NCBI GenBank assembly: GCA_050084515.1
Contig: CM114271.1
Coordinates: forward strand, 32,612,001-32,676,000
Origin: Blasia pusilla
Taxonomy: Eukaryota
DNA length: 64,000 nt
Reading direction: 5' to 3'
A program made the translations under genes and the position numbers. The notes beneath the pieces are model-generated. The model searched no databases. It was not told where the DNA came from and worked only from the letters and a program-made list of their open reading frames with translations. Positions 1 to 37,313 of the stretch are shown here, piece after piece. Numbering within the stretch: the stretch's first letter is position 1; each line of letters begins with the position of its first letter.

Positions 1-14
1 GGGGGCGTCCTTTC

Positions 15-2094: not shown

Positions 2095-2329
2095 GCCCCC
2101 GACCTTTATGCTCTTAGCGTCGTAGAGATGTATGTCGTGGTAGGTAGGGATAGATGGCTATCTGGAGTTAGAGGGACCTAACCACCAGCTAGGGTGGCGA
2201 TTGGAGATATTTTGGTACTTCTCACCTCTGTATATGGATGCCATTAGTTAGCATGGGATCGTGTATGTTTGTGTGTGTGTTGGATGACAGCGATGTATGA
2301 TGTGTAGCGATGTGTATGCGCACGACAAC

Positions 2330-2945
2330 TGTCACGATTGTTAGGATAGATCGGTGGGATCTAGCAGAGCATCTGCACAAGTAGTGGAGGATATGCCCAA
2401 GAGGTCGAGGATGAACTGTTGAGGCCTAAAGAAACCTGAGAGAGCATATTTTCCCTTCGTTTCGGCTCATTTGGAGCCATATTGAGGAACTTACTATTTT
2501 AGGTAAGTACCATTCTGTGTATATGATCGACTTTCTATTTTTTGTAAGTGACCCTTGACCTCCTACATCAGGTCAAGAGCCAAGGAGGTGACTTGGGAGA
2601 ATAGGTTACCATGGAGAGAGCTTGGGAGAGAGCTTGAGAGCTCATTCTCTCTTTGTTGAATTTCTTGGCATGAGGCGGCGGAGCTATGGTCCCTTGCCTT
2701 GTGAGTGTAACCCAAATCTCTCATTAGGAGAGTGGGTTTGGTTTGACATGAGAGAGAGTGCACACCGTTGAGAGCTATGGTGTAAGATGGTGTAGAGAGA
2801 GATTGGATCTTACTTTAATTGGAGATATTTTGGTACTTCTCGCCTCTATGTTTGGATGTCATGAGTTAGCATAGGATCATGCGTATTTGTGTGTGTGTTC
2901 TGTGATTGCGATGTATGTTATGTAATGATGTGTATATGCACGACA
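2330..2945 (+). repeat. 3' LTR of element A (family 1)
   Basis: Starts tgtcacg, ends gcacgaca. Homologous to 17243-17869 and to the solo LTR at 39046-39643, whose TSD defines the boundaries. Confidence 0.85.
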
Positions 2946-4520
2946 AGCTCTTCCTCGACGTGGTGGTAGAGTACCACCACCAGCCAGAGGAGATGCAGCA
3001 GGAGCTCCAAAGCCAACACTTCTCTCACGCATCGATCAGTTGGAGCAGAGGATTGCTGCCATGACAATGATGCAACTCAAAGAAGGCAAAGAGCCGCGAG
3101 CAGCTAGTATGGCTCCAACTTCTACCTCTTACCGTGACCCGGGTGAGGATTTCGCTAGTATGGGGTTTATGTGTAGTGCAGCTAAGGTTGAGGTGGATGC
3201 AGTGGTGACTCGGGGTGCTACGAGAGGCACCGAGCCATCGAGAGGTGGAGTTGAGATTGACCCATTGGAGGGGACCGTGGGCGGCAGGCCACGGTTCCAT
3301 AGTCATTCACATTTTCGGAGGCACTACACACACCATCGATGGTGCCTCGACGACCAGCGGTGCCTACAGCTCACAAAGGTACGTCGAGCGTCATGAGGAG
3401 TTGGAGTGACAACTCCTATGTCGGCGCGAGTGGAGTCAATGTCAACCATAGTGGTGGAGGTGGCCACCAGAGTGAGTGAGACTCCACTATTTTCTGCCAT
3501 AGAGTTGGCGATGTTGGGAGTTGGACCATATGAGTTGTTCCGGCTGGCCGCCACATTGTGTGAGCGTGAAGAGGTGATTGCTTCTTGTTCAGAGGTAGTT
3601 GAGGAGGTGGTGGACTTGCCCTCAGAGCTGGTGCTAGGGACGCCCCCCACAAAGTCATGGCATGCGGCAACGGCGAAGTTGGTAGATATGCCAGCTCAAC
3701 CGGCCATAGAGCAAGGTGTGGTGACACATGGAGTAGTGTTACTGGAGTATTTCACTTGGTTAGTCCGACGGGGATAGTATACCATCCGCACCGTGTCCTA
3801 CTTGATTCGAGAGCGCACACCTTGATGTTAGGGAAGGTGGCGTGTTTAGCGTTGGGGTTACGGAAGGCCAATATTGAGACTTGTCCCTTCCAGATACAGA
3901 CCACGATTGGGGGCGTGTCACTCACGCAGTATATGACTCGATAGGAGATAGTTGTCAGAGTCCAACAAGAGCATGCGACGCATAGTGCTATGGTGCGCAC
4001 GTGTGCGATTACGATACCAGGTGATTCATACAATGTGTTGGTGGGAAGTATAGTGTTATATCCCCTAGGATTCATCCTTGACTTCTGGGAGGAGACCGTT
4101 GCTTATTGGCCTGGGTGGCGGTTAGGTGACGGGCGGATGAGTCATTTACTCGTGCAGTTTGCGGGACGAGGTGGTCGATCATCAGACGAGTCATTGACCA
4201 CGTTAACAGCTTTCACAAGTAGTGTTAGTTAGCCAGGAGAGTTGTTGGAGGGGAGCGCACATGCGGAGGATGTCCTTGTAGCGGATAGTCCCACGGAGAG
4301 ACAGGCCATGGCGGGTGTCTCTTCCCATGTTGGCGAGATCTCTTTACCATTGTGGGATACAACTCGAGAGCTATAGAGGAGTGTTGACGACCTCCTGAGG
4401 CAGGCGTGGACTCATGCCTTTATCTCGGAGCACTGAGAGTTAGGTGGTGATGGGGCTCCTGGAGTGGAGACGTTGATCCCACGAGATACCACACCCGTTG
4501 TGTGGCAGTGTCCAGAGGAG

Positions 4521-5435
4521 GGTGTTAGGGTGTTAGATCTCTTTGGAGGGATTTGCACCGGATTGGATGCAGTATTGCAGGCGGGCATACAGGTGCATCA
4601 ATACCTTTTAAGTGGCGAGTATCATTACGTCACGTGGCGAGATTGGTCCTGAGGTATCGTGAGTTGTTGCCGGTATCTGCAGTACGGGGATATCGGCATA
4701 CACTACCCGCCGACATTTCTTTGGTGGGGGCGCAGGATCTGGATAGAGTTGACACCATTCATTTGGTGATTGCTGGATGGCCATGTCAGGGTCATTCATC
4801 AGCTGGCCGAGGATTTGGATTGCAGGATCCAAGGTCAGGGATGTTTTGGGAGATACTACGAGTAGTACGACACTTGCATGAGAGTCGAACATATTCTCTA
4901 GCATACACTTTGGAGAACGTGCCATTGTTCGGAGACACTCGTGCACGTGTGATGACGAGTGTGCATCAGGTGAGGTCCTAGTTGGGACCTGATGTGTTGC
5001 TAGATGCAGCGAGAGTTGGATCACGTGCCCATCATCCACGACTGTGGTGGACGAACCTGATACCATCAGAGATACTGAGTCGAGCATACAATGGAGTCCA
5101 GAGAGCACCATATCTCACAGTGGATGCTATTTTGGGCTCATGGCGTCGATCTCAGGTGGTGACGTGGGATGATAGACCACCGTTGGCGATGGCCAATAGG
5201 TTGGGGGAGTTGAAGGCAGCCTTACCTACGTTGGTGAGCTTCCTAGCATCCCATGCCTTTCGTCAGGGAGGGCCAAGCATGATTTGGGATGAGGTGATCA
5301 GAGCATTGGAGGAGCCTATAGCAGATGAGCGCAAGCGCACCATAGGGTTTGCTAGCTACGGGTACTATGGCAGTGCTAGGTATGACTTAGGCATCTCGGA
5401 GACAAGTGTTGGGGCAGGCAATGGACCTCAACTGT
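4521..5435 (+). pseudogene. DNMT3-like C5-cytosine DNA methyltransferase domain in element B polyprotein
   Basis: Motif I VRVLDLFGGICTG; motif IV IHLVIAGWPCQGHS (catalytic PC); motif VI YTLENVP; motif VIII DAARVGSRAHHPRLWWTN; motifs IX/X ERKRTIGF...VLGQAMD. Frameshifted, with one stop. Confidence 0.9.
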
Positions 5436-8400
5436 GTCACATGGATAGCCTGCCTAGGAATGGCTGAGCAGAGATGGATGCGAGTGTCATATCTGGTTGG
5501 AGGACAACGAGAAGATAGCATTTTGGGGGATTGCTTGTATCAGTGGCAGTTCTTACCATTTGGGTTGAAGAACGCGCTTGTGGAGTTTCAGAGAGTGATG
5601 GATAGGATTTTGGCTGGCTTGGAGTTTGTACGATGTTACATAGATGATATTCTTATCTTCAGTTCCATGGTTGAGAAGCATGAGCGATACCTAGAGGAGG
5701 TTTATCATCGATTGCAGTTAGATGGATTGAAGTTACATCCAGGCAAGTGCATATTCTTTCAGGAGCAAATTGAGTACTTGGGACACACCATATACTCGAG
5801 TTGGTTAGGCGTTCAACAGACAAAGGTAGAGGCTATTGCATAGATTCCACGTCCTACAGATGTGAGTCGAGTCCGAGCGTTTCTTATATTGGAAAACTTC
5901 TATCGATGGTATGTCAAGGATTTTAGTGCGATAGCAAAGTCTTTGACCTTGTTGACGAGACTTGATCAGGTTTGGTTCTAGGGAGATGATCAGGAGCGAG
6001 CATTCCAAGAGCTCAAGGACAGGTTGACATCCTCACCCATTTTACAGAGAGCGGTTAGGGGTCGCCCATTAGAGTTACATACGAATTGGAGCATGTTGGG
6101 TCTAGGAGCAGTGATTACTCAAAGAGATGACAAGGAAAGGGAGTTTGTTGTGGCTTATGGGAGCCGATCGAACAACATTGCAGAGGCGAAGAACATCTCC
6201 TACGAGGTAGAGTGCTTGGCTGCTGTGTGGGCCATAGCACAATTTAGGTGCTATTTATTTGGCAACCCTTTCACACTTCTCACTGATCATCAGGCGTTGA
6301 GGTGGTTGATGGAGTCCGAAAAGCTTACGGGAAAGCTTGCTAGGTGGGTTGTATTACTACAGGAGTATGAGTTTGAGGTGGTTCATAGGCCTGGCCGGCT
6401 CAACCAAGATGCGGATGGGTTGAGTCGTAACCCATGTCCGAGTCAGAGAAATGACATAGGAGCTTAATGGCACGGAGAGAGTGATGAGGAGATGGTGCCC
6501 GGTTGGCATGCATCTGCCTATCTTTGTTGGTTGACTATGATAGGTGAGTCACAGGTGATGACTCTAGTGGTGGGGTTGGATGATGAGTCTTTGGATCCGG
6601 AGGTCAGTGGGAAGGTGACATGTGGTCGTCATATCCATGACGACGTGGAGGTTGTGGAACTCTTGCGCATTGGCGTCATAGCGAGCACAATGAGTGCTAG
6701 GGAGCGGGATCGGATCCTACAGCGAGCCAGGAGGTTCAAGTGGGAGGGGACTCATATTTTACGGGTATGGGGAGATGGTAGGATACGAGTGGTATCTCAT
6801 CCTTCCCAAAGAGCACGTGTAGTGCGACATGCCCATGACGAGTTGGGACATTTTGGAGTGAAGCGTACTTACAACTTATTCCTGGTTGAGTATTGGTAGC
6901 GCGGCATGCATACTCGGGTACAGCAGTTTGTGGCCAGATGTATGGTATGTGACAGAGTGCGATCATCCTTCAATGCTCCCACTCCGTAGTTACATCCTTT
7001 GTCGATTATGGGTTTAGATTATTGATGGAGTTTAGACTTTGCGGGACCTTTTCCATTGACGGGGCGTCATCATAAGTTTGTGTTGGTCATCGTGGAGCAT
7101 TTCTCCAAGTGGATAGAGTTGGTGGCACTACCGGACAAGGCGAGCAAGGGAACAGCTTATGCATTTCTAGATCGTGTGCTTAGTCACTTTGTTGCACCGG
7201 CAAAGGTGTTGACTGACCTGGGTACCGAGTTCAGGGGAGAGTTTCATGCCTTGTGTGATTAGACACTAATAGATCACCGCACCACGTCCAGAGATCATCC
7301 TGAGGCGGATGGGTTGGCGGAGAGAGTAGTATAGACAGTGAAGATAGGATTGCGCAAGTTTAGGGTTTAGGATTTCTAGATTATGTGCTTAGTCACTTTG
7401 GTGCACCGGCGAAGGTGTTGACTGACCAGGGTACCGAGTTCAAGGGAGAGTTTCAGGTCTTGTGTGATCACACACTAATAGATCACCGCACCACGTCTAG
7501 AGATCATCCTGAGGCGGATGGGTTGGTGGAGAGAGTAGTACAGACGATGAAGAGAGGATTGCGCAAGTATGGCTTGCAACGGGGATAGTTGAGGGAGTGG
7601 GACCTACAGTTGGCATGGTTGGCTATGGGTTATCGCTTTAGCCGGCAGGCATCCTTGGCGTCATTTTCACCATACTTTTTGCTCCTTGGGAGAGAGCGAG
7701 ATTTACCTACAGCTATTCGACGTGACATGGCGGAGCTGTTAGATCTTGATGATCCAGATGTGTGGGTATAAGCGTGTTCTCAGAGGGCGGAGATTTTTCG
7801 TAGAGTTATGCCTATGGCCTTTGAGAACTTAGCTATTGCTCACCATAGAGATATACTGAGGTACACGACCATTCGTGGAGGAGGTTATCGTCCAGGAATT
7901 AGCAGGTTTTATCATGGAGATTACGTGTATTTATAGCAGACGGCACCTACGATGCTAGATGTCACTGCAAGGCGCACGATCCTACATATTCACGAGGTAT
8001 TATGGACCGGAGTCCTCATGTTGGAGGGACGGGATGGTATGGTTTGGAAGGATCATATGCGCAATTGTGCACCATGTCATCTTTTGAACGTAGATGAGAC
8101 AGTGGATCTGCGAGGGGTACAACCACCATGTTGGTATGTGATGGTTATTCTTGAGGGTGGCATATATCATGTCTGACCCCCCCTCTTGATGTAGTTCCCA
8201 CAAGATAATGGATGTGTCCGAGATGTGTATAGGATAGTATGACATGTCAGAGAGATGTGATATTTTCTATCTAGAGTAGGGGGGATCCAACTGCCAGCTA
8301 GGGGGGCGGTTGTGTGATCTCAATGTATATGTACGAGTTAATTTCTGTACATGTGTGGATCTACCCGTGTGTGGGGAAGATCAATGTTGTGTGGTGTAGA

Positions 8401-8448
8401 TGTGACTAGCAATGTATGTTGTGTAGCAATATGTATGCGTACGACAGT

Positions 8449-9066
8449 TGTCACATCTGAGTAGCCGATAGGCCAAGATCTATCGTGGATAGGGCGAATT
8501 AGCCAGCGGACTATCTTGAGTCTAACTTTCTCCCATGGTGTCAAATGAGGTTGAAGATAGGTCCATTATGTCAGGAACGTTGTTTCTAACAACTTTCCTA
8601 TTGAGGTCTTTCACAACCGGGTGACTTATTGACCATGTCACCCGCCCCTGATAACCTATGCGCGCAGGTTACCAAGGGGATGGCTATTTTTAGGGGAAGA
8701 GCCTTTTAGCTCTTTCCCACCCTATATAAGAGAGGAAGATGGCTTTCCTAAGCCATCTTTCTCATGTTGGGCCATTGGAGCACGTGTCTTGTATGTGTCT
8801 GAGATAAGACTAGGGTGCTAGCGTCCGGATTCCTTGATAGCATAGGGTGGACGAGGCTCAATATGCCGATGTAGATTGAGGAGTGGAGTTTTAGGCCAGG
8901 TGTGCCATTTTTACTACTCTTTATTTTTGTTGTGTGATCTCCATTTATATGTACGAGTTGATTTTTTTACATGTGTGGATCTACCCGTGTGTGGGGAAGA
9001 TCGATGTTGTGTAGTGTAGATATGACTAGCGATGTATGTTGTGCAGCGATATGGATGCGCACGACA
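8449..9066 (+). repeat. 3' LTR of element B (family 2)
   Basis: tgtcaca...gcacgaca; TATA-like cctatataag near 8721; its last 138 bp are duplicated at 8309-8446. Confidence 0.8.
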
Positions 9067-12000
9067 CATTCAATTTGCAGACCTGTCAAAAGGGGGGCTA
9101 TCAAGTAGGGATAGATAGTGGAGATCCAATTTTCTCTGGGAGTTATTCTAGTTAAAAAATAAAAATTAAATTTGGTTGGGGAGGGGACAATGTCTATCCT
9201 ACCATGTCCTAGCTGATTGTCCGGGAGACGCGCAAACTGGATGTGGACTTGCTACCGCCGTTGTATGTTGTGTGGTTCGTCGACGCTTCAAGGCCCCTAC
9301 CCGATTTTTGAACTTGCCAAGAAAATACTGAGCCGCCATACAACCGTGTGCTGCTCCCTCTGACCCTACGTTACTACTGCCCGTAGAGCCAGACGTCTGA
9401 ATCTTTATCCTAGACCGCCGTGGCTGCATGTGTTCGCGGCTGGTCATTTGCATTTTTGGATTGATGGGGTCGCTTTGTTCCGTCCGCTTTGTTATGGTGT
9501 GATTTGTAGCCGCTTAAGGAAGATCGAGTACCACGCCGTGATGTTCGTAGGTGCAACGCGCCGCTAATTGGCGCGCCGTGCCGCTTGTGGCCGTACCGCA
9601 CAGTCTCGATCGTCAAGCCGCACCATCACTGGAGAGCATAGCGTGTATTGTTGTTGACAAGGGTATGCTGCTGAGTGACGCACCCTATTATCGAGTGTCG
9701 TGTTGTTCATAGCCGTTCTGTGCCGCGAGTGCCGCACTGTACCGCTCAACCCGCGCCGCACATCGAGGAGATTTGAGCATCGACTGTACCAGAGCAGTAC
9801 GACTTGCTACTTGAAGAGTTATCTTTACGGTCGAGTTGGGGTCGAGTTTCTTTAGTTGCTGAGGTGCGACATCGATACTTGTTGTCAGGCTACCCATTTT
9901 GGTTTTTTGCCTTGCACGTGTTAGGGATTTCCGAGTATTGTGCACTTATTTGGGGATATTGGGTTTCGTATTGATGTTGAGAGCATCATTGATGTATGGG
10001 TTTAGGGGACATAGGCCTGTGTGGGATCGATGAGATGATATGACAATAGACGATTTGCCACACGTGCCGCTTGTTCCGCACAACACACATCTCACTGAGA
10101 GAGTGTAGATTTAGTGCAGCATGTTGGATTGAGTGATTACTCACGAGATTGAGAGTGATCGTGTGAGAGGGACAGGAGGGTCATTACGGTGTCCTTTCAG
10201 GACTTTGAGAGGCAAGCTGGTGGACCTGAGAGTAGCTCTAGAGGGTTTACCCGGAGTGGTGCGAGGTTTCGAGAATCTTCACGTGAGAGATCACCTCGAT
10301 CTCCTTTTGTGTCGTCGTTAGACAAGGGGGAGAGTGTAGAGGAGTGTGCTAGTGATCCACGGCATACATTGAAAGGTCCTACAAGTTGGGCATACGAGAT
10401 GGACGATCGGGGTAGAGGACCGTGTAGGTTTTTGGGTGCTTTAGGCACTATAGAGCTACATGATTTCATGGCGGAGTTTAGGAGTTGGTGTGACTCATAG
10501 CGGGCTAGGAGCTCCAGAGAGTTCAACCTGTTTACAGCATGGGACGGAATGTTCCAACATTTAGAGGGGGCACCCATGGACGATTACCATGAGTTCTCGT
10601 AGAGATATGCCCATGAGATTGAGGCTTGGAGACTCTACTATGACCCACACTATGTCTCATGGACTGAATCATTTCCAAATGAGGAGGAGGAGTCATGAGA
10701 AGGTTCCTCCACCAGTGATGTTGTTGGAGGGGTGACTCGCACTAGAGCAATTGCATCATCCAGTCACTTCGTCCCAGGTTCAATCCCGTGGTTGATTTCT
10801 TCCCTGAGTTGAGGGCGAGGTACCTAGGGGTATGGATGGAGAAGTTGCGAAGCATCCAGGACTTCCAGCGGCGTCCGGATGAGAATTTGCGTGAGGCCTA
10901 TACACACTTGCGCCCGTTGATTAACGTCACTCAGGGGGTGACAGAGGCCTAGGCTATCCGTCATGGTACGCGATGCTCGATCGGACCCTGAGGACACGGG
11001 TGAGGGAGGGGATGCTTCTTATGAACACCTCCCCTACATTGAGAGATGTTTTTAGGACTGCCAAGAACATTGAGCGCAACATGGCAAAGGAGACCGTAGC
11101 CACCATGGGTTCTGGGCGAGAGCAGTCACAATTGCCTGCACCACCAGTGCAACAACGTGGATTCGGAGATAGGTCTCTGGCACCACGAGCTCAGGGAGGA
11201 TACCGGGAGGCCGTGCCACGAAGACTTGCGCCTTCATATGCGACTCAACATCAACCGCCTATGATTACTTGTTGGTTAGGTAATGGAGCCCATCATCAGT
11301 GCGATTGCACTCGTCACGATCATGGTCAGGTGCCTCGCCATGGAGGAGGAGATGGTGCTACACTAGGAGATTATCACTGTGACTATTTTCAAAGGTACGG
11401 TCACACACACGCGAGATGTTTCAGCTTGCACACTAAGTTACATTCGAACCGAGGGCCAGAGAGGGCACTAGAGCGAGTTGCAAGTCCGGGTGGGCCTAGA
11501 GGTCGTACACCATGTGGTCCCGTAGGGGGACGAGGAGTTGGATTTTCCCGAGGGGTTGGTGGAGTTTCTTGTGGAGGAGGTAGAGTCCCACCACCTAGAC
11601 ACATCGAGGGAGATGGCGGGCGTGAGGCTGGGATGGTTGATCAGATACAGTAGCTACAATAGTAGATTGCCGCTATGGCATTGAGGTTACCCGATGCCGG
11701 ATTCATGGCATCAACATCTTATGGAGCCGCAAGAGATATGGAGGATCCTCGTTGGATGTGCGGGGCTGCCCATATGGAGGATGCCGTAGTTGTTACGCGT
11801 CGAGCAGTCGGAGAGTTGGATCCACAGCGAGGGGAAGCCAACAAACAAACCTGGCTTCCTCAGTCCTTCGCGTTGTCCGAGGCGATGAGGACCCCATCGA
11901 TGGGTCTTGATCAGAATTCTCAGAGAGTTGGTGATGTTGTTGGTGTGCAAGCACGAAGAGCCATGGGATAAGCAAGTGCGATGACTTCTATTGCTGATGC

Positions 12001-13093
12001 TCAGGAGGAGCATGTGTCAAGCACGTTGTTGGGGGCGACCACTGTTGTGTATCGCGCTTCTTTATTTTTGCTTCCGATATTATGACGTTGGGAGGTATGC
12101 CCACCGAGGTTTTTTGGCTGGCCGCTACGCTATGTGAGCGTGGATTTGGAGTTCTTGCATCACGTTCAGAGGTGATTGCAGAGGAGGTGATGGACCTGCC
12201 CTTCGAGCTGATGCTCCAGCCGTCCACATCAGATTCTTGGCAGGTTTCCACTGCTAGGATGGCGGAGATGTCCGCTAGACCTACGATAGAGCGTGCCATG
12301 GCTTCTCCTGGTGTTGTTTTGCTAGATAACTGGGGAGAGGTCTTCCTCTTGCTGAGTCCAGGAGGTAGAGCATTTAAACCGTAGCGCGTCTTGTTGGATT
12401 CAAGAGCGCAACCCTTGATGTTGGGGAAAGCGGCATTTAGAGGTTTGGGCTTGACGAGGGTCGATATGGAGCGTTATTCATTTTGGATATAGACATCCTT
12501 GGGTGGAGCAAGTACCACATAGTATATCACCCGAAAAGAGGTCGTGGTGAGGATTTGCCTGGGACATCCTACACATGAGTCCGTGGTGCGAGACAAGGCA
12601 ATAGTGACTGATGCAGAGTCCTACGACATCTTGGTTGGTGGAGCAGTGTTGTACTAGATGGAGTTTTCCCTGGATTACTAGGAGGAGTCAGTGTTACACA
12701 AACCATGATGGTAGTCAGGTGATGGGCGCCTTAGCTCATTACGAGTTCAATTCTCAGATGCAGTGATCGAGCGCCGGCCAGGAGAGATGGCGACCTTAGT
12801 AGCGCCATCTCTTGGCCTAGTGATTTGATTGCGGAACATGTCCACACAGAGGATACTTATATTCCTGACATTTCTATGGAGAGGAGTGTCATGGTCGACG
12901 TATATTTCCGTGGAGGAGAGGTGCCGCTTTGGGGCTCAATTGAGGAGCTTTGACGCTTAGCCATTGAGCATGTGCAGATCGCGTGAAGCGAGACGTTTGC
13001 ACCATACCGTGACAGGTCAGAGGAACCCTAGGCGAGACTGCTATGATCACGCCCTTGGATACTACACCCATTGTATGGCGCATCCCAGAGGAG

Positions 13094-14020
13094 GGTATTC
13101 GGGTGTTGGATCTCTTTGGAGGGATCAACACTGGGTTAGTTGTTGTTTTGTACGCAAGAGTACGCGTGCAATAGTACATGTATGTGGAGATTGATGATGT
13201 CGCGAGGCGCACTTCACTTCACCATGTAGCTCAATTATGCCTCTCTTTTCCTGACTTGTTGTATGCGTCCGCTGTCCAGGGATACCAGAGTTTCCTACCG
13301 AGGGATATTTCATTTCTACGGGCGCAGGACTTGGATCGGGTAGGGACCATAGACTTGAACATTGTTGGTTGGCCGTGTCAGATCCAATTGAGTATTGGAC
13401 AAGATAGCGGGTTAGCTTACACGTGGTCCACGTTGTTTTGGGAGATGATAAAGATTCAGTGACATTTACATGAGCATCAGTCTCGTTCTCCAACATACAT
13501 TCTCGAGAATGTGCCAATTTTGGGTGATTCGAGGTACCGCGTGGTCACGAGTGCACATCAGGTGCGTGCATGGATCGGCACAGCAATGTTGTTAGATGTA
13601 GCGAGTGTAGGTTCTAGAGCACACCGCTCATGTCTTTGATAGACTAACTTGGTACCACACAAGGTATTGCAGAGGGCATATCCACGAGTGGAGTGCCCCT
13701 CCCAGTTATTGGGGGATTACATATTGGATCCGGACCATCAATCACAGGAAGTGAGATACGATGATCGACCGCCGTTGACTTGGGTCAACAAGATTGGCAT
13801 GCCACGGGCAGCCTTTCCCATATTTGTGAGTTTTCTCGCTTCCTATGTATTCAAGGAGGCCGGGCCTAACTTGGTTTGGGATGACCAAGTACAACGATTG
13901 ATGGAGCCCAATGCCGATGAGCGCGAGCGAGCGATGGGATTTCCCACATGAGTGACGGAAGTATCGTTACTGTTAGAGGCATCACGACTTCATGTCTTGG
14001 GTCAAAAGATGGACCTGAAC
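13094..14020 (+). pseudogene. DNMT3-like C5-cytosine methyltransferase domain in element C polyprotein
   Basis: IRVLDLFGGINTG (~13097-13135), IVGWPCQ (~13361-13381), YILENVP (~13496-13516), GSRAHR..L, ERERAMGFPT (13919-13948). Multiple disruptions. Confidence 0.88.
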
Positions 14021-17000
14021 TGCATGACATGGAATTTCAGCTGAGCAGTAGCGGAGTAGCGTCATTTGAGGATGCGACACATCTCAGCTGTTGCTTTGGT
14101 GAGCCCCATGCCTACCGAGACGGAAGAGGCAGTGGCTAGGGGCGAGACCTGAGGAGATCGACACACGATGGATGATCGGGAGAGACACCCTGGGACTTCT
14201 TGGGATGTTTTGCAGGTATGCCAAGAGATGATAGCCACAATATCGAGCATAGTTCCGAGTACTGCACGTGGAGATGAGAGTTTGCAGTTGGCTGTAGGAG
14301 AGCAGTCAAGTTCGATTGTACAAGACGGGGTTGCACCATAGCAGCCACCGACATCCGCGCTAGAGAGTGCTACTGTAGTCACGATGGAGGCTTGGGAGCC
14401 AAATATGGGCCCTAAGTTGACAAGAGGAGAGTGGCGCCGGATACACCAGTTCTTTAGGAGTTATAGGAGTTATTTTGCATTTAGTATGCAGGATTTGGGT
14501 ACGCTGAAGGGTCCATGGATCCGCATTGAGTTGTCGAGTGACACGCCGATCTTCCGAAGACCCTACAGATATAGTAACATAGAGAGGGCTTTGATTCAGA
14601 GTAGGAGCTAAGACTTGGTTGGAGCAGGATTAGTGGAGATGTTGCATGGAGAGTATACATCTGCCACTGTCATGCTCACCAAGAAGGATGTGTACGGCAA
14701 TTGGACGGATAGGTGGATGTGTGGAGATTACCGACCTATCAATCGGCAGAGGAAGTTCGATAGGTATGCCATTCCCACCCCTCAAGAGATCTTTGATGCT
14801 ATTGGGAATGCAAAGGTCTTCAGTTTGTTAGATCTTCAAGCTAGATACCATTAGTTGCCTATCAGATTGGAGGACAGGCAGAAGATGAAATTCCGGGGTA
14901 TCGATCCTCACAGGAAGGATTGCTTATACCAGTGGCGGTTCTTACCATTCGGGTTAAAGAACGCTCCAGTTGAGCTTCATAGGATCGTTGATAGGATCTC
15001 GGCACGTCTGGATTTTGCTAGGTGTTATATTGATGTTATCATAGTCCTTACCGCCATGGTTGAGGAGCATGCGCGACATCTAGAGGAGGTGTTTCGAAGA
15101 TTTCAATTATATGGGCTAAAGCTACATCCAGGCAAGTGCAAGTTCTTCTATGACCAGATTGAGTACTTGGGTCATACGATATATCGAGGTGGCCTTGGTA
15201 TGCAACAGATAAACATAGAGGCTATTCCATGCATTCCACGCCCTACAGATGTGAGTCGAGTTCGTGCATTCATGGGATTGGCGAATTTTTATCGAAGGTA
15301 CGTCAAGGGGTTCAGTTTGATTGATAAGCCGCTAACCTTTCTGACCAAGGTGAATCAGTAGTGGCATTGGGAGGATGAGCAAGAAAGAGCATTTCAGCTG
15401 CTCAAGGACATATTGACGTCCGTGCCCATATTAAGGAGAGCGATCAGGGGATGTCCATTCCAATTGCATACCGATTGGAGCATGTTGGGGCTTGGAGCCA
15501 TGCTCACCCAACATGAGGATGATGGTAGAGAGTTCGTGGTGGCTTACGCTAGTTGCTCAAGCAATGTTGTAAAGGCGGAGCATAGCTTGTGTGAGCGTGA
15601 GTGCTTGGCTGTGGTGTGGGTTGTTGCACATTTGAGGTATTATCTATTCGACAACCTCTTTACCATCATTACTGATAATCAGCCACTTAAGTGGTTGATG
15701 GAGTCCGACAAGCTTATAGGGAAGCTTGCAAGGTAGGCTCTTTTGTTGCAGGAGTATGACTTCCAAGTGGTGCATAGACCGAGCATGCTCAACTAGATGG
15801 TTTGAGCCGTAACCCATGCCTGAGTCAGCGAGATGCGACTAGAGCTTGTTGGTATGGTGAGAATGATGAGGAGTTGGTGCCAGGATAGCACGTGTCAGCC
15901 TAATTGGGCTTGTTGGTTATGGAGAGCCAAATTGACGAGACTTCGATGTCGAGGTCTGATGGAGAGTCCTTAGATCAAGAGGCCAATGAGGAGAAAACAC
16001 GTTGCCGAGACATTCACGATGATAGAGTGGTCTTGAAGTACCTATGTACTGGCAGCGTCGCAAGCACATTGGCTGCTAGAGAGCGGGATCGGATCCTATA
16101 GTGAGCTAGACGATTCCGGTGGGAGGGGACACATGTGTTGCAAGTTTGGGAAGATGATAGAGTGCGTGTAGTGCCTCATCCTTTGCACAAAACATATTTG
16201 GTGCGTCATGCCTACGAGGAGTTGGGTTATTTTGGAGTGAAGCGAACATATAGCTTGTTCCAGATACAATATTGATGGCGAGGTATGCAGAGTGACGTTC
16301 GGGAGTTTGTTGCCAGGTGCACGATGTGTGATCGAGTCTGAGCATTGTTCAATGCTCCAACTCCTTAATTGCATCCACTTCCAATCATGGATTTAGGGTC
16401 TTGGAGATGGAGTTTGGATCACGATGATGGAGCGGTCTTGAGTTTTTTCAGAGACTGATGCCCATGGCGTTTAATAACTTGGCAATTGTGCAACATTAGG
16501 ATACATTGAGGTATGCGACTATTGGGGGAGGTGGTTATCAACCTACTATCCAAAGGTTTCATCAGGGAGACTATGTTTACTTGTAGTAGACGGACACATA
16601 TGACGTTGGATATGACTGTAGGGCGCACCATCTTGAGAGTGCGTAAGATTTTGCAATATGATGTTCTCTTATTGGAGGGACGTGATGGTATGGTTTGGAA
16701 GGACCATGTGCGTAATTGTGCGCCATATCATCTTTCGAACATTGATGGTGCACTTGATCTGAGCTTAGTAGTAGTCCCTACAAGCTTGCAATGTATGTTG
16801 TATGGTTCTGCTCATGGTGCAGCCACTATGCTAGTCAATGATGGATGTTCGAGAGGATGGCATATGGCATGTCTGACGCCACCTCTCACAAGGGTTCCTC
16901 ATAGACGATGGATGTGTCCCAGATGTACATGGAGTAGGTAGTTCCACATTTCGACTTGTGTTTGTGACATGGATGACAAGAAGGCGACTAACGGTGGGGC

Positions 17001-17242
17001 CACATGAGCACCCTGCCTTCTTGCTCTTAGTGCCTGAGAGATGTATCTCATGGTAGGTAGGGATAGATGGCTATGTGGAGTTCGAGGGACCTAACCATCA
17101 TCTAGGGAGGCGATTGGAGATATTTTGGTACTTCTTGTCTCGTTTTTTTGATGCCATGAGTTAGCATGGGATGGTGCGTGTTTGCGTGTGTGTTCAGTGA
17201 GAGTGATGTATGTTGTGTAGCGATGTGTATACGCACGACAAC

Positions 17243-17869
17243 TATCATGTCTTTTAGGAAAGATCGGTGAGATCTAGTGAAGGGCTTTCTTGAGTAGTGG
17301 AGGACAGGCTCAATAAGTCGAGGATGACCCGTTGAGGCTTCGGGAAATCTGAGAGAGCAGGTTTTCCCTTCGTTGCGGCTCATTTGGAGCCATATAGATA
17401 AACTTACTATTTTGGGTAAGCTTCCATGTTATGTATAGTTGGATTTCTACTTTGGGAAGTGACCCTTGACCCGCTACATCAAGTCAAGAGTCAAGGAGGT
17501 GACCTGCAAACACAGGTTACCAAGGAGAGAGCTTGGGAGAGGGAAGGGGGTATACCTTCAAGAGGGAGAGCTTGAGAGCTCATTCTCTCTTTATTGAACC
17601 TCTTGGCACGAGGCGGCGGAGCTATAGTCCCTTGTCTTGTGAGTGTAATCCAAGCCTCTTATTTGGAGAGTGGATTTGGTTTGACATTAAGAGAGATATG
17701 TGAGAGTGCAAACATTTGAGAGCTATTGGATCGCATTTTAATTTGAGATATTTTGGTACTTTCTTGTCTCGTTGTTTGGATGCCATGAGTTAGCATGGGA
17801 TTGTGCGTGTTTGTGTGTATGTTTGTCAATACCGATGTATGTTGTGTAGCGATACGTATATGCACGACA
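17243..17869 (+). repeat. 3' LTR of element C (family 1)
   Basis: tatcatg (mutated TG start)...gcacgaca; homologous to 2330-2945 and to the reverse complement of 39046-39643. Confidence 0.85.
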
Positions 17870-17983
17870 TCGACCACCATAGACAATACCTCTCATTATA
17901 GTTTTAGCCCTCTGAACTTCTACTTGGATTTGAATCAAATGGTTATTAGAAATTATTAAACAAGCATAACAAATTAGATACGG

Positions 17984-17988
<5 letters not shown>

Positions 17989-18031
<43 letters not shown>
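17989..18031. repeat. (CT)n microsatellite
   Basis: Pure dinucleotide run. Confidence 0.97.
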
Positions 18032-18036
<5 letters not shown>

Positions 18037-18042
18037 CTACCA

Positions 18043-18300
18043 TGGAGGACAAAATTTTACAATAAGAAGATGAGTGGAGACTAGTCCCCTTCTCAATTAT
18101 ATAAGATATGGACAAACAACCCTAATCCTAATCCTAAACATAATCTTGAGTTATACTAATTATGGTTAACTAACCCTAGTTAAGATAATCATGGTTAACT
18201 TACTTATCATGATTAAGTTTTCATACTTCGTGTGAGTACCAAAATATTGCAATTCGTGTGTATGATGATCATGAGCTTGAATATAACTTATTCTTCAATA
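18043..18300 (-). repeat. Copia H 3' LTR
   Basis: Adjacent to the PPT; alignable with 32377-32622. Confidence 0.7.
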
Positions 18301-19377
18301 CTCCCCCTCAAGCTTATGTCAATATCTCTATTATCTAAATCATTTTAAAAATATCTCTAACTTATTTCCACACAATACCTTGGTAATTAAAATGTCAACA
18401 ATTTGTTGATCTGTACCTATATACATAAGAGAAATTTCTCATGCAAGCGTTTTCTCTTAGATAAAGTTGTAATGAACCTCAACGTGCTTTCTTCGAGCAT
18501 GAAACATAGGGTTATTAGCAAGGTTGATACTACTAATATTGTCTGCATATATTACACTAAGTACCAAGTTACTAACACCAATCTCAACAAGTAATCGATG
18601 GAGCCACACCACCTCATATGTTACCTTGGTTACTCCTAAGTACTCTGCCTCTGTAGAAGATAAAGCAACCTCGAAACCAACTATAGGTTGCTTCTTTAAA
18701 GCCCAAATTTATAACTACGCTTCCCAAGATGAAGGAATCACTAGATGTAGAGTGTCTCTCATACATATTTTCTACCCAAACAACATTTGTGAATCCTCCT
18801 TATTGTAAACTTGGAGAAGGTTCAAATTGAAGCCCAAACTAAACAGAGAATTTCACATGCCGCAAAATCCTCCTTATAATATAAAGATGAGGTTTTTTAC
18901 ATGTTTGCTTGAATTGGCTCACTAGGCCAAATGCGTAGCTCATGTTCAGCCTCGTTATACTCAGATAGATCAAACTTTCAACCATATACATATATATATT
19001 ATAGAATCTGAAAGCAACTCTCCTTTATATATTCTTAGGTTCACACTCTGGTCCAAATGTGAGGTTTCCGAGATGCTTGTATGAATTGGCACTCTAGGCC
19101 AACTATGTAGCTCAAGTTTGGCCTAGTTATAGTCAGATAGATCAAACTTCCAACCATACACGGTACATATTACAATATGAAAGCAACTCTCCTTCATCAA
19201 CTCTTACGTTCACACTCTGATCCAAAAGTGTAAAGATTGGCTTGCAAGTTGTCATACAATATTTTGAAAGCCTGTGAAGACCATATTTTCGGTGTAATAA
19301 CCACAAGCTCTGTCCAATCCTAATAAACTCAAGACCAAGGAAGTGTTTCAGTTCTTGTAAGTCCTTCATATCAAATT

Positions 19378-19808
19378 TGTCATGACCATACGGATTATGT
19401 CGTAGAGTATAGTGTGCTAGTAGAGGCCATACCTTATGTAGGGCCGCAGTGTCTAGGTAGAGATGCGATTTCATACATAGGGTTGGGGGTTACTCAGTTG
19501 AGGGAGCTTTCAGAGGGCCGCTCTCGAGGTTGGAGGATATAAGGTGGAGTGCACTCAAAGAAACGATCGATTCTTTGAGTTGAGCCTGTTGCGTTGGGAG
19601 TTAGCCTTGGTAGTGAGTAGAGCTCTTGGCTATGGTGTTTCCCGCAAGCTTTGACCTACATTCTCCCATCGTGGAGTGGGTTTGGCTCGATTGTATGTGA
19701 TTCTACACGTGTTTTATGACAGTAGGTCTTTCACGAATTTCAGTTCTTGTACACTTGTGTTTGTGGATGCTCTCGTCTATGTTATGTATGTATGTGAGTA
19801 TGGTATGT
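19378..19808 (+). repeat. 5' LTR of element D (lacks the last ~40 bp present in the 3' LTR)
   Basis: Starts tgtcatgacc; matches 28450 onward up to ...agtatggtatgt, then diverges. Confidence 0.88.
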
Positions 19809-21004
19809 TGCTGAGGTTCCTCTTGCTACTTATATTATGATCTCATGTGAAGCTATTTGCTCGAGTGTGTGGAGCGTTGCGGATTTTTGCGTGCATGAAA
19901 CTAGGCGGAAGCGCTGTCGGATTTGCGATTCTGGAGGTGTATGGACAACAAGTTTGTCTGATTTTTACTCAGAGTACAGATCTTGGTGGTAGCTGATTTT
20001 TTGTGGAGAGATAGCTATGGTGGTCAATTGAATTTTGGTCGAAATAGATTTGATTTTGGTCACGGATTTGTGAAGTAATTGCTGATCGAAATTTCGCAGA
20101 CTAACTCAAGGTCTGGCTATGGTGGACAGCGGATCGGAGGGGCTCGTTGGTTGGTGACTCACATTGTTGGAGATGCCTATCCTGTTTGGGGCGCCCTGGT
20201 TGGGCCTCTCTCCATGGCGAAGCTTGGCATGTCTCGGTGTTTTGAGGCTTCGAGGCAACTCGTGGTAGCTCGGGGCGAGTGGGCGTGAGGGGCGGAGTAA
20301 GGAGCAAGGAGCAAGGAGCAAGCAAGCAAGCTTGCTTGGGCGCAAGGAAATTTTTGTAGGATTTGTGATTTGAGTGTTGCATAACTGGTCACCCATCTTT
20401 GGGCTATTCTGCCTTGAAGACGCTTAACTGCTAAGTTCTTAACTATGCCAGTGTACACACTGTTGTAGCTCATTTGGTGCTCTTCAGAGATGTGTTAGGC
20501 GCTTTATGCATCTCAGGTTTTTGGTTGATGTACCTCTAGCGCATAGTACGGTGTAGCCTCTCCATGCAGGTGATATTTTCAGGTGTTGCGAGTTCGACTA
20601 GCACGTCATCGACCCGCGGCGGAGTAGCTATTGCGTTAGAATTGTGTGGTGGTTTTGTGGATTCAGGGGGCGCCACGTTTGTGGATTGTGTTACCTTGAT
20701 TTCCATTTGCAATTGGAGGGTTGTCGTTGGACTTCCTGTGTTTGGATCCCCTCCATCGTTGCTTCTTGCTTGCGCGCCCATTGTTAGGGTTGACGCTGAT
20801 TTCCAGAGTAGTGTCACTCCTGTGTGCTACCGATAGTGAGGCTGGAGTGATGACCAGTAGACCGTAGGTGGCTTCTTGTGGTGATGACAGGTTAGGTTGC
20901 CTACACCCATAGCTAGTAGAGCTAGAATAGTATAGTGACATCGACGTCACTTGGTTACTTAGTGGTGATAATTTGGTGGTGGTGCGGCATCGGCGTTGGT
21001 CATC

Positions 21005-22545
21005 ATGGAGTTGTCGGAAAGTCTGGTTGGGGACCGTGGTGCGGACAGTGGTGGTTTCACACGGAGTGGATTAAGGTATCGGCTACCTTTTCCACTTCCG
21101 ACGGTTGATGAAGAGGAGGACGAGGGTGTTACAAACACCGAGTCTTCTACGTTGTTATCGAGTGTTGCAGCTCCATTGATTTGGGACATAGACGAGATAT
21201 ATGGGGCCATGAAGGGCCCACGATGATACTCGGGTGCAGTGGGCACCATTGAGTTGGAGGACTTCATGCATGAGTTTGATACGTGGTGTGATATGCAGAT
21301 GTTACGGAACGCCACGTTGTTTACATCCTTCTTGGCTTGGAAGGGATTGTTTCAGCACTTGGAGGAACCACCCATGGATGCTTACCATGAGTTTAGGAAG
21401 GACCATGTTGCTGAGATTGAGGCATGGAGACAATATTGGTCTCCAAGCTATGTGTCTATCACCCATGGTGGTATTGGTAGTAGTGCTCCTACTATGCCAG
21501 CCAGCCCGACGTTGAGTGGTACGAGTACGAGCCGGAGTGGGAGTACCAGTGGAGGTACCCATGGAGGTACCAGTGGGGGTACTAGTGGAGGTACTAGTGC
21601 CCCACCATCGTTTAGCCGGGTTGCAGAGTTCTTCAAGAGGTTGAAGAAGAACTATCAGGGAGTGTAGACAGAGAAGTTGAGAAGTCTTCAAGAATTTGAG
21701 TGAAAAACTGGTGAGAGTCTTTGTGAGACATACACTCGTATGCGACGCTTGATTTCAGTTACCCAAGGTGTGACTGAGGCTCAGGAAATCCAGTTTTGGT
21801 ATGGGATCTTGGACAGAGAGTTGCGCCGCAGGGTACGTGATGCTACTCTTATGAGTGATGATTCACCCACATTGACCCATGTGTTTGCTCTTTCTGAGAA
21901 GATTGAGCTTAACATGGTAAAGGAGAGAGTGGGGACATCCGCATTCAATAGGGATACAACTACTACTTCTCGTGTTCAGCAGCCCACCTCACAGTCTCGT
22001 AGTAGTGTTGGTGGTAGTAGTAGTGGGAGTCGTGGGGGGTACACGCGACCTCAGTCAGGTCGTAGAGGGACACTTGCGCAGAGACCATTTCCTTCATTTC
22101 TGCTTGCAAAGAAGGACGATCATGTTGGACATGTGGAGGTGATCATGTTAGGAAGTTTTGTCCCCAAGAGGATGGAAGACGGACTTTGGAGGATGGACCT
22201 CAGTTGGCCCCAACTCAGTGTGATCATTGCGGGAGACCAGGTCATCCTCGAGAGCATTGCTTTGATCTTCATCCAGAGTTGAGATCAGGCCGCGACCGTG
22301 GTGGAGTAGCTCCGAGAGGCCGAGGTGGTAGAGGTGGTAGGGGTGGTAGAGGTGGACCAGTGGTTGGAGAGCCTATGGTGGCTACCCCTACCACTACGAA
22401 TGAGCCAGCTATGGTTGCCAAGATTGAGCAGTTGGAGCAGAAGTTGGCTACTATGGTGGTATCCAAAGATAGATCGGGTTCGGGAGCACGGGCTTCCACC
22501 TCTTATGGAGGGATGATCTCTCTTATATGGCGAAAGATAGGTTGA
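21005..22545 (+). pseudogene. Gag of element D
   Basis: GTIELEDFMHEFDTWCD, YTRMRRLISVTQGV, CCHC knuckle CDHCGRPGHPREHC, RGG repeats; homologous to the gag of C and E. Confidence 0.82.
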
Positions 22546-23133
22546 GGCATTGGGCTGCGATTCGAGAGGAGCCACGAGGCGTCGAGCCACGTGGTGCTCT
22601 TGTGGAGTTGGACCCATAGAGGGTCGAGGCGGGAGGCGAGCTAGGCTTCCCAGATCATTCTTGTTGTCTAAGGTGCTTAGGACTCCATCCATGGTTCCCG
22701 CGAGCCTATTGAGCCCGAGTGGGGATCGAGGCATCTACATTGCATGTAGTAGACACGGATGCAAAGACATCGGCGATATTGTGGATGGCAACTTCGGTGT
22801 TGGGATCCCCATTGTTTTCGGCCACGGAGCGATGGCTTTAGTCGTTGACTTAGCTCTGTGATTTCAGCTAGCGACCACGTTGTGTGAACGTGGGGGTATT
22901 ATTGCTACACGTCTTTGAGGTGGATGAGGGTGTTGCAAAGTGGGAGCGACCCTCTATGTCATGTGTAGCATTGAGTACCGGTGCTACTTGGCGGCGGCAA
23001 AGGCGGGAAGATGGATGCATTACGGCCGGCCGACCATTGATCGTGAGAGGCTTACACCTGGTGTATGTATGTTGGACAACCGGGTGGGATATTCGATTGG
23101 TGAGTCCTACAGACAGGTGTATAGACCAGATAG

Positions 23134-23430
23134 AGTCTTGTTAGACTCGGTGCCCAACCTTGATGTTGGGAAAGGCGGCATGTATTGGTTTGGGTATTCG
23201 GAGGTCAGAGTTTGAGCCTTCCCCATTCCAGATTCAAACATCACTTGGAGGAGCCAATGATAGGTCTCAATTCATGACAAGGGAGAAGTTTTCTGTACAG
23301 TTGAGACCAGATCATGCGACTGATAGCTCCCGGTTGGGAGTACCTGCAGTGGTCACATCAGCCGAGTCGTCTGATGTACTAGTTGGAGGAGCAATATTGT
23401 ACCCGATGGGTTTTCAGATGGATTACTAGA
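23134..23430 (+). pseudogene. Aspartic protease of element D
   Basis: VLLDS(G) active-site motif with a frameshift, flap-like IQTSLGG, and DVLVGGAIL. Confidence 0.75.
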
Positions 23431-23868
23431 CTGAGACAGCGTCTTATAGACCTGGTTGGCAGTCCGGGGATGGACGTATGAGCCAAGTTCCTGTGAGATT
23501 TATTTATGGGGCTCAACAAGGAGGGTCTTCCCCAACAGTGTTAGCATCTGTGGCTGGTTTTAGTGGAGTAGTCACTTGGCCATAAGACTTTTTGGAGGGT
23601 AATGTTTTTGCTATGGATTCTCCTGTGCATGAGCAGATAGAGGAGGTCCCTATTTTTGCAGTAGTGGCATCCTCATCGTTGGATGTGCCACTTTGGAGTT
23701 CAGGCGGTGCACTACGGCAGGAGGCTGATCGCCTAGTGCAGGAGGCTTGGTGTGAGGCTCTTATACCTCACGAGGAAGAGGAGGCCCCACGGCGGACTCT
23801 TACTTCTAGTCGATTAGGTTATCCCCTTTGGATACTACACCCATTGTATGCAAAAGATATCTGCGGAG

Positions 23869-24800
23869 GGCATTTGTGTGTTAGATCTCTTTGGTGGGAT
23901 TAGCACGAGTTTGGTCTGCAGATGTTGCAGCCGGTATTCTGTCTTGGAGATACGTGTATGTGGAGCGAGATGAGACGGCCCAGAGAGTCTCATCCCGACA
24001 TATTGGTCAGTTGATGCGGAGATATCCTGAGTTCTTGCCGCCATCAGCTATTCGTGGGTACCAGCGTGCTTTGCGGTCACGCATTGCATTGTTGGGGCGC
24101 AGGACCTTGAGAGGGTTGGTCCTGTGGATTGGGTGATTGCTGGATGGTCATGTCGGGATCATACACGTGCTCGTCGTGGTGAGGGATTACACGACCCTAG
24201 GTCTCGATTGTTTTGGGAGATGTTACGGGTGTTACGACATCTTCAGGTTCATCAGGCACGTGCTCTAGCTTACATTCTGGAGAATGTTCCATTGTTGGGT
24301 GACACTCGGACCCGGATGATGGCGAGTGTTCATGAGGTGCGCTCTTGGATTGGACCAGCGGTGTTGTTGGATGTAGCGCGAGTTGGCTCACGTGCACATC
24401 GTCCACGCTTGTGGTGGACAAACTTGTTGCCTATGGAGGTTCTACGTCGAGCATATGATGTAGTGCAGCGGGATCCTTGCCTTACAGTGGATAGTATCTT
24501 GGATACTGGGCGACTTTCTCAGGTGGTGAGGGTTATTGATCGGTCACCCATGGCAATGGTGAACCGTGTGGGCCAGCCTAGGATGGCACTACCCACATTT
24601 GTGAGTTTTCCCTCGTCACATGCATACAGGGAAGGTGGTCCCGGGCTTGTATGGGATTCTCATGCGCGACAGTTGGTGGAGCCTAAAGCTAATGAGAGAG
24701 AGCGTGCGATGGGATTTGCTACTGGTGTGACAGCGGTTGCTTCCATTTCTGAGGCTTCACGATGTTATGTGTTGGGTCTGGCCATGGACCTGAATTTTTT
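23869..24800 (+). pseudogene. DNMT3-like C5-cytosine methyltransferase domain in element D polyprotein
   Basis: ICVLDLFGGIST, YVYVERDE, VIAGWSCRDH, YILENVP, LLDVARVGSRAHRPRLWWTNLLP, ERERAMGF, VLGLAMDLN. Most of it lies in ORF 24124-25065, same frame as the RT ORF 25072-26220, separated by one TAG. Confidence 0.92.

Positions 24801-37243: not shown

Positions 37244-37246
<3 letters not shown>

Positions 37247-37310: not shown

Positions 37311-37313
<3 letters not shown>

Follow-up and report, generated by a model that had tools for sequence, protein, structure and literature searches.

Retroelements that carry a DNMT3-type cytosine methyltransferase (MTase) in their coding region have been described from Klebsormidium nitens, as a Gypsy element, and from Symbiodinium, as a DIRS element. 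The stretch of DNA considered here, 64,000 nucleotides of Blasia pusilla (assembly GCA_050084515.1, contig CM114271.1, positions 32,612,001 to 32,676,000 of the forward strand; the window), holds four copies of one kind of Ty3/gypsy-like element (A to D), which fill its first 29 kb on the plus strand, and a fifth fragment (E) on the minus strand. Positions 13094-14020, within copy C, are best read as an inactivated DNMT3-type C5 MTase that forms a standard, ancestral module of one bryophyte Ty3/gypsy-like lineage. The element belongs to the known Gypsy-DNMT3 kind, now found in bryophytes; new are the position of the MTase at the end of the first open reading frame (ORF1), the readthrough-like UAG that follows it and the PHD finger on the integrase.

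The closest described system is KnitGypsy-Dnmt3 of Klebsormidium, whose DNMT3 domains, according to the text of the original paper, have conserved catalytic residues and a Ka/Ks below 0.2 (de Mendoza et al. 2018, PMC5890265). Like the Blasia element it is a Ty3/gypsy-type streptophyte element with a non-rearranged DNMT3-like catalytic domain in its coding region and with the catalytic residues conserved, and its repeats, given in that text as 'the same as that of a DIRS retrotransposon' (A-coding-B-A-B), match those of copies A-D and of two metagenome loci, L025 and L057. It differs in that the DNMT is there assigned to the 'Pol polyprotein ORF', whereas in the present elements it is the last domain of ORF1, ahead of a conserved in-frame stop, and in that the hosts here are bryophytes. 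The likeness is drawn from the published description, no Klebsormidium sequence being among the search matches; compared in this way, the features of the Gypsy-DNMT3 kind, namely a DNMT3-like domain in a Gypsy coding region, purifying selection and DIRS-like repeats, are all present. As stated in the text of the 2018 paper, its survey of 96 genomes included Physcomitrella but not Marchantia and Sphagnum (PMC5890265), and the consulted parts of later texts speak of 'streptophytes (Gypsy-DNMT3)' (preprint 10.64898/2026.05.21.726589; PMC12344493).

SymbioDIRS-Dnmt3 of Symbiodinium also has a DNMT3-type domain in a retroelement polyprotein together with split direct repeats, and the same text reports that its domains methylate CG de novo in yeast (PMC5890265). 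Unlike the Blasia element, it belongs to the DIRS type and has a tyrosine recombinase, whereas a DDE integrase (rve, H2C2), TG...CA termini and 4-bp target duplications are found here. With the chromoviruses the Blasia element shares the fusion of a chromatin-reader module to the C-terminus of the integrase, but the module is a chromodomain there and a PHD finger (PF00628) here; the text of the relevant paper, in the parts consulted, mentions neither methyltransferase nor PHD (Neumann et al. 2019, PMC6317226), and the word PHD is also absent from the main text of the paper on the algal elements (PMC5890265). In the literature searched, with figures and some supplements outside the search, no explicit description was found of a bryophyte Gypsy-DNMT3, of a stop codon following its DNMT or of a PHD finger on its integrase.

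The methyltransferase domain of copies B, C and D

C5 MTases are recognised by a series of ordered motifs, among them I (FxGxG), IV (PCQ, with the catalytic cysteine), VI (ENV), VIII (RxR), IX and X. In copy C, positions 13094-14020 contain in a single frame LDLFGGIN at 13115 (motif I), GWPCQ at 13373 (IV) and ENV at 13505 (VI), and motifs IX and X are readable in the same frame (ERERAMGF, then GQKMDLN), while motif VIII is broken by two stops. The domain as a whole extends over 13040-14338 on the plus strand. No ORF of more than 130 amino acids spans 13094-14020, and with seven in-frame stops in 327 aligned codons the domain is a pseudogene. As these stops preclude a whole-domain Pfam scan, the assignment of copy C was made by tblastn to relatives: residues 381-693 of the Marchantia polyprotein P0097 match 13094-14032 at 54% identity, and residues 862-1243 of the Gag-protease-MTase protein P0090 match 13040-14209.

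The MTase of copy B (4616-5498, plus strand) has GWPCQ at 4781, ENV at 4913 and two in-frame stops in 322 aligned codons, and it scores 37.4 bits (E 2.5e-9) against PF00145, above the cut-off of 22. That of copy D (23854-25062, plus strand) has a degenerate motif IV and one in-frame stop in 331 aligned codons; its ORF fragment, at 21.9 bits (E 1.4e-4), falls just under the same cut-off, intact relatives scoring 29-41 bits. All three MTase copies are therefore pseudogenes. Copies A and E do not extend to the MTase region. RVT_1 and the RNaseH linked to the reverse transcriptase (RT) were found by Pfam in B, C and D. An earlier note on this DNA had held that the three copies are clearly diverged in nucleotide sequence and that each has the MTase at the same position with the same motifs, GWPCQ and ENV being kept in C. 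The divergence is borne out by pairwise blastn, with MTase identities of 63.5% (B-C), 70.8% (B-D) and 65.0% (C-D) and RT-to-integrase identities of 70-72%. So is the position, since in the tblastn map all three copies have the MTase flanked by the protease region on one side and the RT on the other. The motifs agree in B and C, which both carry LDLFGGI., GWPCQ and ENV, but not throughout in D, where GWSCR stands in place of motif IV.

When the MTase of copy D was used as a query, 89 proteins of similar length and 23 longer ones matched, and every named relative came from a bryophyte (Marchantia polymorpha, M. paleacea, Riccia sorocarpa, Calypogeia fissa and a Sphagnum species). A scan of JGI metagenome contigs yielded 80 loci, mostly of one large decayed family (M1), together with a young family without stops in its aligned codons (L038 and L080) and a distant locus (L075). 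Long relatives have the domain order CCHC Gag, aspartic protease, PF00145, RVT_1, RNaseH, integrase (H2C2, rve) and PHD finger, with the Pfam names Asp_protease_2, RVT_1, RT_RNaseH, Integrase_H2C2 and rve, and tblastn gives the same order in B, C and D. Protease, RT, RNaseH and DDE integrase thus follow one another as in Ty3/gypsy elements. The PHD finger at the integrase C-terminus is recognised in copy A at 1873-2007 (PF00628, E 9.4e-12) and in the relatives P0111 and P0112, and broken equivalents lie near 8130-8250 (B), 16800-16935 (C) and 28000-28195 (D). No chromodomain was found by Pfam at the integrase C-terminus, where the PHD finger occupies its place, and the element is thus set apart from the chromoviruses. 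The finger may read histone tails and in this way bear on the choice of insertion sites.

A profile of nine relatives, run against all PDB sequences, placed DNMT3A (8e-15), DNMT3B (2e-13) and DNMT3C (7e-13) on top, whereas its other matches were far weaker (plant DRM 2e-6, HaeIII and HhaI about 1e-4, DNMT2 3.5e-3). For the relative P0003, an AlphaFold model of moderate quality (mean pLDDT 65.3) likewise retrieved the DNMT3A/B/C catalytic domains first in Foldseek (E 3e-15, target-normalised TM score 0.65-0.70). By profile and by fold the MTase is therefore DNMT3-like, the assignment being one among solved structures only. A protein cluster search returned only generic PF00145 clusters, one of Streptophyta and two of phage-type viruses. 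Animal DNMT3 enzymes have the N-terminal reader domains PWWP and ADD. Neither was found in the relatives, for which Pfam gives the catalytic domain alone between protease and RT, but many DNMT3s have no companion domains, according to the part of the source consulted (PMC12344493), so the absence of readers is not strictly defining. All six motifs (I, IV, VI, VIII, IX and X) are present in the intact relatives L038 and L003, and when 27 relatives (32-85% identity) are aligned, no columns are invariant except the G, W and C of motif IV and the E, N and V of motif VI.

Selection on the methyltransferase

The ratio of nonsynonymous to synonymous divergence (dN/dS, omega) was estimated pairwise by NG86 with 100 bootstraps, codons being mapped to reference proteins by tblastn and stops dropped; YN00 gave no value for most saturated pairs. 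For the MTase the ratio is 0.24 (0.13-0.33) between B and C, 0.23 (0.14-0.34) between B and D and 0.25 (0.17-0.36) between C and D, with dN of 0.33-0.43 and with dS of 1.4-1.7, so that synonymous sites are saturated and the values are rough. The corresponding values are 0.12, 0.13 and 0.18 for the RT and 0.14, 0.13 and 0.22 for the RNaseH. In the least saturated between-family pair, copy D and L003 (dS 0.78), the MTase gives 0.31 (0.22-0.44), the RT 0.12 (0.08-0.16) and the RNaseH 0.23. When the MTase was read out of frame by one or two bases, the ratio rose to 0.78-1.02 and 1.48-2.34 (0.8-1.9 for the B, C and D pairs), so that neither composition nor saturation accounts for the low in-frame values. 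Some of the measured dN would moreover reflect decay after insertion, since the repeat segments B1 and B2, described below and assumed to have been identical at insertion, have diverged from each other (by 3.7% in copy D, by 9.4% in copy B and by 14% in copy C); omega in the active phase would then be lower still.

Over the long term purifying selection has thus acted on the MTase, though clearly less strongly than on the RT, and the MTase is about as constrained as the RNaseH or somewhat less. The earlier note had proposed that between-family dN/dS of the MTase be set against that of the RT, with a value near 1 speaking against its view; the comparison, made here pairwise on copies, gave no such value.

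A conserved stop between methyltransferase and reverse transcriptase

On translation, copy D and nearly all loci show an in-frame stop at one and the same codon downstream of motif X, and the RT follows in the same frame. The stop is present in 54 of the 55 recognised MTase/RT junctions (54 of the 80 metagenome loci, and copy D), as TAG in 39 and TAA in 15, the remaining junction having TAC. The six bases after it are CAACCC at 48 of the 55 junctions, every one a moss-metagenome locus, and CAACCA, CAACTA, CAACTC, CAACCT or CAGCCA in the rest. Copy C reads in-frame TAG CAG CCA at 14339-14347 (plus strand), where its ORF1 ends, with the RT in the same frame from 14393, and copy D has the same nine bases at 25063-25071 (plus strand), between MTase and RT; L038 and L075 have TAG CAA CCA and L080 has TAG CAA CTA. 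When D, C, L038, L003 and L075 are aligned, the stop and its context are almost the sole invariant bases in a poorly conserved stretch.

In plant RNA viruses, type I readthrough is signalled by a UAG with CARYYA directly after it, as given in the part of the source consulted (PMC5382211). The junctions of C, D, L038, L075 and L080 all have this form, with CAG-CCA or CAA-CCA after the UAG and CAA-CTA in L080; they differ from the viral cases in belonging to a retrotransposon and in being known from sequence alone. Contiguous gene calls of ORF1 in relatives (P0132, P0138 and P0108, of 1329, 1331 and 1437 amino acids) run from the CCHC through the protease motif to the complete set of MTase motifs (I to X) and terminate 90-145 amino acids past the last of these. 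From the conserved stop and these gene calls it follows that the MTase is the C-terminal domain of ORF1, which has the make-up Gag-protease-MTase. RT, RNaseH, integrase and PHD finger would then be a readthrough extension of ORF1. The placement of the MTase in the Gag-protease frame, ahead of a conserved and leaky-looking stop, offers a concrete and testable model of expression.

Terminal repeats

The terminal repeats of A, C and E align together, whereas those of B and D share with them only the initial TGTCA and the final ~40 bp (...GCACGACA), which agrees with the remark in the earlier note that the long terminal repeats (LTRs) of B, C and D cannot be aligned apart from the terminal motif. 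The termini are TG...CA (TGTCA...GACA), and 4-bp target duplications flank copy D (AATT), L057 (CATA) and a solo LTR in copy E (GGGA). The layout is A1...B1-A2-B2: the terminal 108-138 bp of the LTR (segment B) occur a second time, as B1, directly upstream of the 3' LTR in copies A to D and in L025 and L057, with 2-3 nt between B1 and A2. In copy D the 5' repeat (19378-19808, plus strand) consists of A1 and the first 67 nt of B and is without the last 41 bp of the 3' repeat; the 3' end (28341-28923, plus strand) consists of B1 (28341-28448), a few nt and the LTR made up of A2 and B2 (28450-28923). The B1-LTR regions of the others are at 2200-2946 (A), 8309-9066 (B) and 17113-17870 (C), all on the plus strand, and at 10489-11036 in L025 and 10490-11059 in L057, both of which lack the entire B segment in the 5' repeat. 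Despite the TG...CA ends and the 4-bp duplications, the two identical LTRs of Ty3/gypsy elements are thus not found. The B1/A2 junction resembles an LTR-LTR circle junction, here in an element with a DDE integrase. No primer-binding site was identified in the elements.

Transcription of relatives of copy D

Three stranded RNA-seq runs from one study, carrying the same species label, were mapped on 9000-28950. About 2000 reads per run fall on copy D, nearly all of them 95-99% alike, and only 27, 24 and 35 reads reach at least 99%, so the reads derive from related copies and not from D itself. Strand bias on D is strong, with the first mate on the minus strand, which corresponds to sense RNA in most stranded libraries. 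Depth is 17-40 in the MTase bins (23652-24983) and 22-107 in the RT/integrase bins, and there is almost none on copy C. Some relatives of D are therefore transcribed through the MTase, which suggests that living members exist. Reads of all three runs (14, 23 and 41) join 26703 to 27699, with nine other letters between (as seen for X23 and X24) and without GT..AG ends. The transcribed relatives of D seem to include a form without about 1 kb of the integrase region.

Descent, proposed role and alternative explanations

Maximum-likelihood trees of the MTase and of RT plus RNaseH, built separately from 43 copies (the 42 of 84 subjects that have good cover of both domains, and copy B), both give ((B,C),L038),D, with node supports of 93, 100 and 100 for the MTase and 78, 100 and 100 for RT plus RNaseH. 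Pairwise distances in the two domains correlate (Pearson 0.82, 42 copies). When only the Gag-protease part of P0090 was used as a query, 17 of the 18 other proteins matched carry at least part of the MTase downstream, the exception (P0144, 35% identity) ending where the MTase would start. The congruent trees, the correlated distances, these proteins and the conserved junction together support a single ancestral acquisition. The earlier note had called for the comparison of trees and had named the lack of the domain in most family members as an outcome that would speak against it; the family topology is the same in both trees and nearly all of the proteins matched through Gag-protease carry the domain, and its view of an MTase ancestral to the clade and kept by purifying selection, as opposed to a one-off capture, is upheld by dN/dS, trees and proteins alike.

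In the mechanism proposed, low-rate readthrough of the stop codon would produce RT and integrase, and since these would be made only in this way, the MTase would be present in Gag-like amounts. The MTase would travel with the particle and methylate de novo the element's own new DNA, either complementary DNA (cDNA) or a fresh insertion. Methylation could make new copies resemble host-methylated DNA, or it could moderate the activity of the element. The MTase itself has diverged together with the RT and has been kept by purifying selection in active lineages, less strictly than the RT. Self-methylation of new DNA has been proposed for the algal and dinoflagellate elements in the text of the 2018 paper (PMC5890265). 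Taken as a whole, the explanation that combines an ancestral DNMT3-type module of the Gypsy-DNMT3 kind, co-divergence with the RT, readthrough and self-methylation is considered very probable.

Several findings weigh against this explanation, and some of them would suit an MTase that was captured once, has no role and decays slowly as a neutral passenger. Besides the saturation that makes the B, C and D values rough, omega within families is high: L003 and L057 give 0.63 for the MTase and 0.60 for the RT, and L038 and L080 show 11 nonsynonymous and 5 synonymous differences in the MTase (omega 0.61, on only 171 codons) against 9 and 16 in the RT (0.14). A frequency test in M1 (33 of 39 copies, the near-duplicates L006, L029, L020, L023, L024 and L061 being dropped) gave for the MTase a ratio of nonsynonymous plus stop to synonymous variants of 2.38 among private variants and 1.88 among those in at least three copies, which is not significant (p 0.23), whereas the RT gave 2.49 and 1.40 (p 0.001); the test is contaminated, since 15 stop variants are common to at least three copies, through duplicated dead copies or recurrent mutation. 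Stops in decayed copies are also somewhat denser in the MTase (1.28 per 100 codons, 329 in 25718) than in the RT (0.83, 178 in 21435). None of the three within-family tests showed significant selection on the MTase, and variation within families is mostly decay. A passenger without a role is nevertheless very improbable, given that the between-family omega of 0.23-0.25 has upper bounds of at most 0.36 and compares with 0.8-1.9 out of frame, that the catalytic motifs supply the only invariant columns among the 27 relatives and that ORF1 products with a complete MTase are intact in several diverged families. Even less credence is given to an independent capture of a host DNMT3 by each of families B, C and D, with the shared position a matter of convergence. 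That retrotransposons have repeatedly captured DNMTs is documented for other lineages, according to the parts of the sources consulted (PMC5890265; preprint 10.64898/2026.05.21.726589), but here the same flanking domains and the same junction (in-frame UAG-CAR-CCA) occur in all families, the trees of MTase and of RT plus RNaseH share their family topology at 78-100% support, and the pairwise distances in the two domains correlate.

The remaining points against the proposed mechanism concern readthrough and self-methylation. The CAA-CCC of the large moss family fails the last position of CARYYA, and the leakiness of the stop is read from conservation and context only. The observed/expected CpG ratio of the elements, 0.65-0.74, is no different from that of other repeats in the window. 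The Klebsormidium domain gave no detectable methylation in yeast, a result that its authors call inconclusive in the text consulted (PMC5890265), and no Gypsy-DNMT3 is known to act on DNA. The domain might then have been retained not because it methylates DNA but because, for instance, it methylates RNA, binds nucleic acid in the particle or serves as a spacer in polyprotein processing, and its place in the Gag-protease frame, apart from the DNA-handling enzymes, and its weaker constraint than that of the RT would fit such a role. This is nonetheless improbable, as the nearest solved relatives are the DNA enzymes DNMT3A/B/C and not the tRNA enzyme DNMT2, and as the conservation of the S-adenosylmethionine-binding and catalytic motifs (I, IV with its cysteine, VI, VIII, IX and X), with GW.C and ENV invariant, argues for catalysis.

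Cytosine methylation is the main route by which plants silence transposons, and it is thus a paradox that a transposon lineage should long keep a de novo methylase of its own. To our knowledge Klebsormidium is the only plant-lineage case that has been worked up. Liverworts and mosses are now seen to have the same kind of element, and several diverged families occur together in a single genome, so that the module is likely to be of old date and widely distributed among early-diverging land plants, the genetic model Marchantia among them. The MTase copies of these elements inflate DNMT gene counts in bryophyte genomes and are not to be mistaken for host genes. A bolder and rather doubtful proposal is that of an old streptophyte retroelement lineage with an epigenetic toolkit of its own in an undescribed layout, comprising a Gag-tail DNMT3 that is probably packaged, a tobamovirus-type UAG-CARYYA readthrough, a PHD integrase and split repeats in spite of integration by a DDE integrase with 4-bp duplications. 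If it were true, and if the MTase acted on nascent cDNA in the particle, new copies would arrive pre-methylated, and the transcribed relatives of D would be a tractable system for asking why a transposon methylates itself.

Layout of the copies and other features of the window

Copy A (1-2946, plus strand) is truncated by the window edge to its 3' part, in which self-BLAST and tblastn recognise RNaseH, integrase, PHD finger and the B1-LTR region. Copy B (2947-9066, plus strand) adjoins copy A without a gap and starts in the middle of gag, near residue 369 of the Marchantia reference P0090, and an internal deletion has taken its MTase/RT junction and the N-terminal half of its RT. Copy C (9067-17870, plus strand), about 80% identical to copy A, is decayed and comprises leader, gag, protease, MTase, RT and RNaseH (14393-16143, plus strand; Pfam, tblastn), integrase with PHD finger and B1-LTR (tblastn, self-BLAST); no 5' repeat of its own is visible, its start directly abutting the 3' LTR of copy B. 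Copy D (19378-28923, plus strand) is the youngest and most complete, with repeats 96.3% identical between its AATT duplications, RT and RNaseH at 25066-26875 (plus strand, no stops in aligned codons) and an integrase at 26741-28195 (plus strand), whose C-terminal PHD finger is the broken one noted above. Copy E (38452-40578, minus strand) is a leader and gag fragment of the A/C family, interrupted at the leader/gag border by a solo LTR of the same family (39046-39643, minus strand), which is the one flanked by GGGA.

Copies A, B and C abut head to tail at 2946/2947 and 9066/9067, where the 3' LTR of A passes into mid-gag of B and the 3' LTR of B into the 1.3-kb leader of C. This arrangement may be a nested insertion with the outer halves outside the window, or a chimeric tandem. 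Copy C may either have lost its 5' repeat or have been cut when B was inserted. The leaders between the 5' repeat and the start of gag are unusually long, at 1.2-1.3 kb (9067-10390 in C, 19809-21187 in D and 2193-3350 in L057), and those of C, D and the moss family cannot be aligned to each other. Within the integrase region of copy B there is a tandem duplication of 197 bp (7163-7359 and 7372-7568, 92% identical, 209 bp apart). In copies A-D the sense strand is rich in G (0.29-0.31) and poor in C (0.18-0.20), with a GC skew of +0.17 to +0.25 and with T exceeding A, and as copy E on the opposite strand has the mirror-image skew, the strand asymmetry is family-wide.

Beyond the four copies, 28924-48000 is AT-rich and holds other repeats, among them Ty1/copia-type RT fragments on the minus strand (RVT_2 at 41738-42277 and YIDD near 28999), an inverted pair of 2 kb (29502-31589 and 43463-45466, 81%) and 176-bp repeats at 41068 and 45554. 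Further on, at 53393-54952 on the plus strand, an open frame of 519 codons with a DUF702 domain (SHI/STY/LRP1-type, plant-specific) lies in a GC-rich stretch (0.54-0.58) and is probably a host gene; the plant-specific domain marks the host as a land plant.

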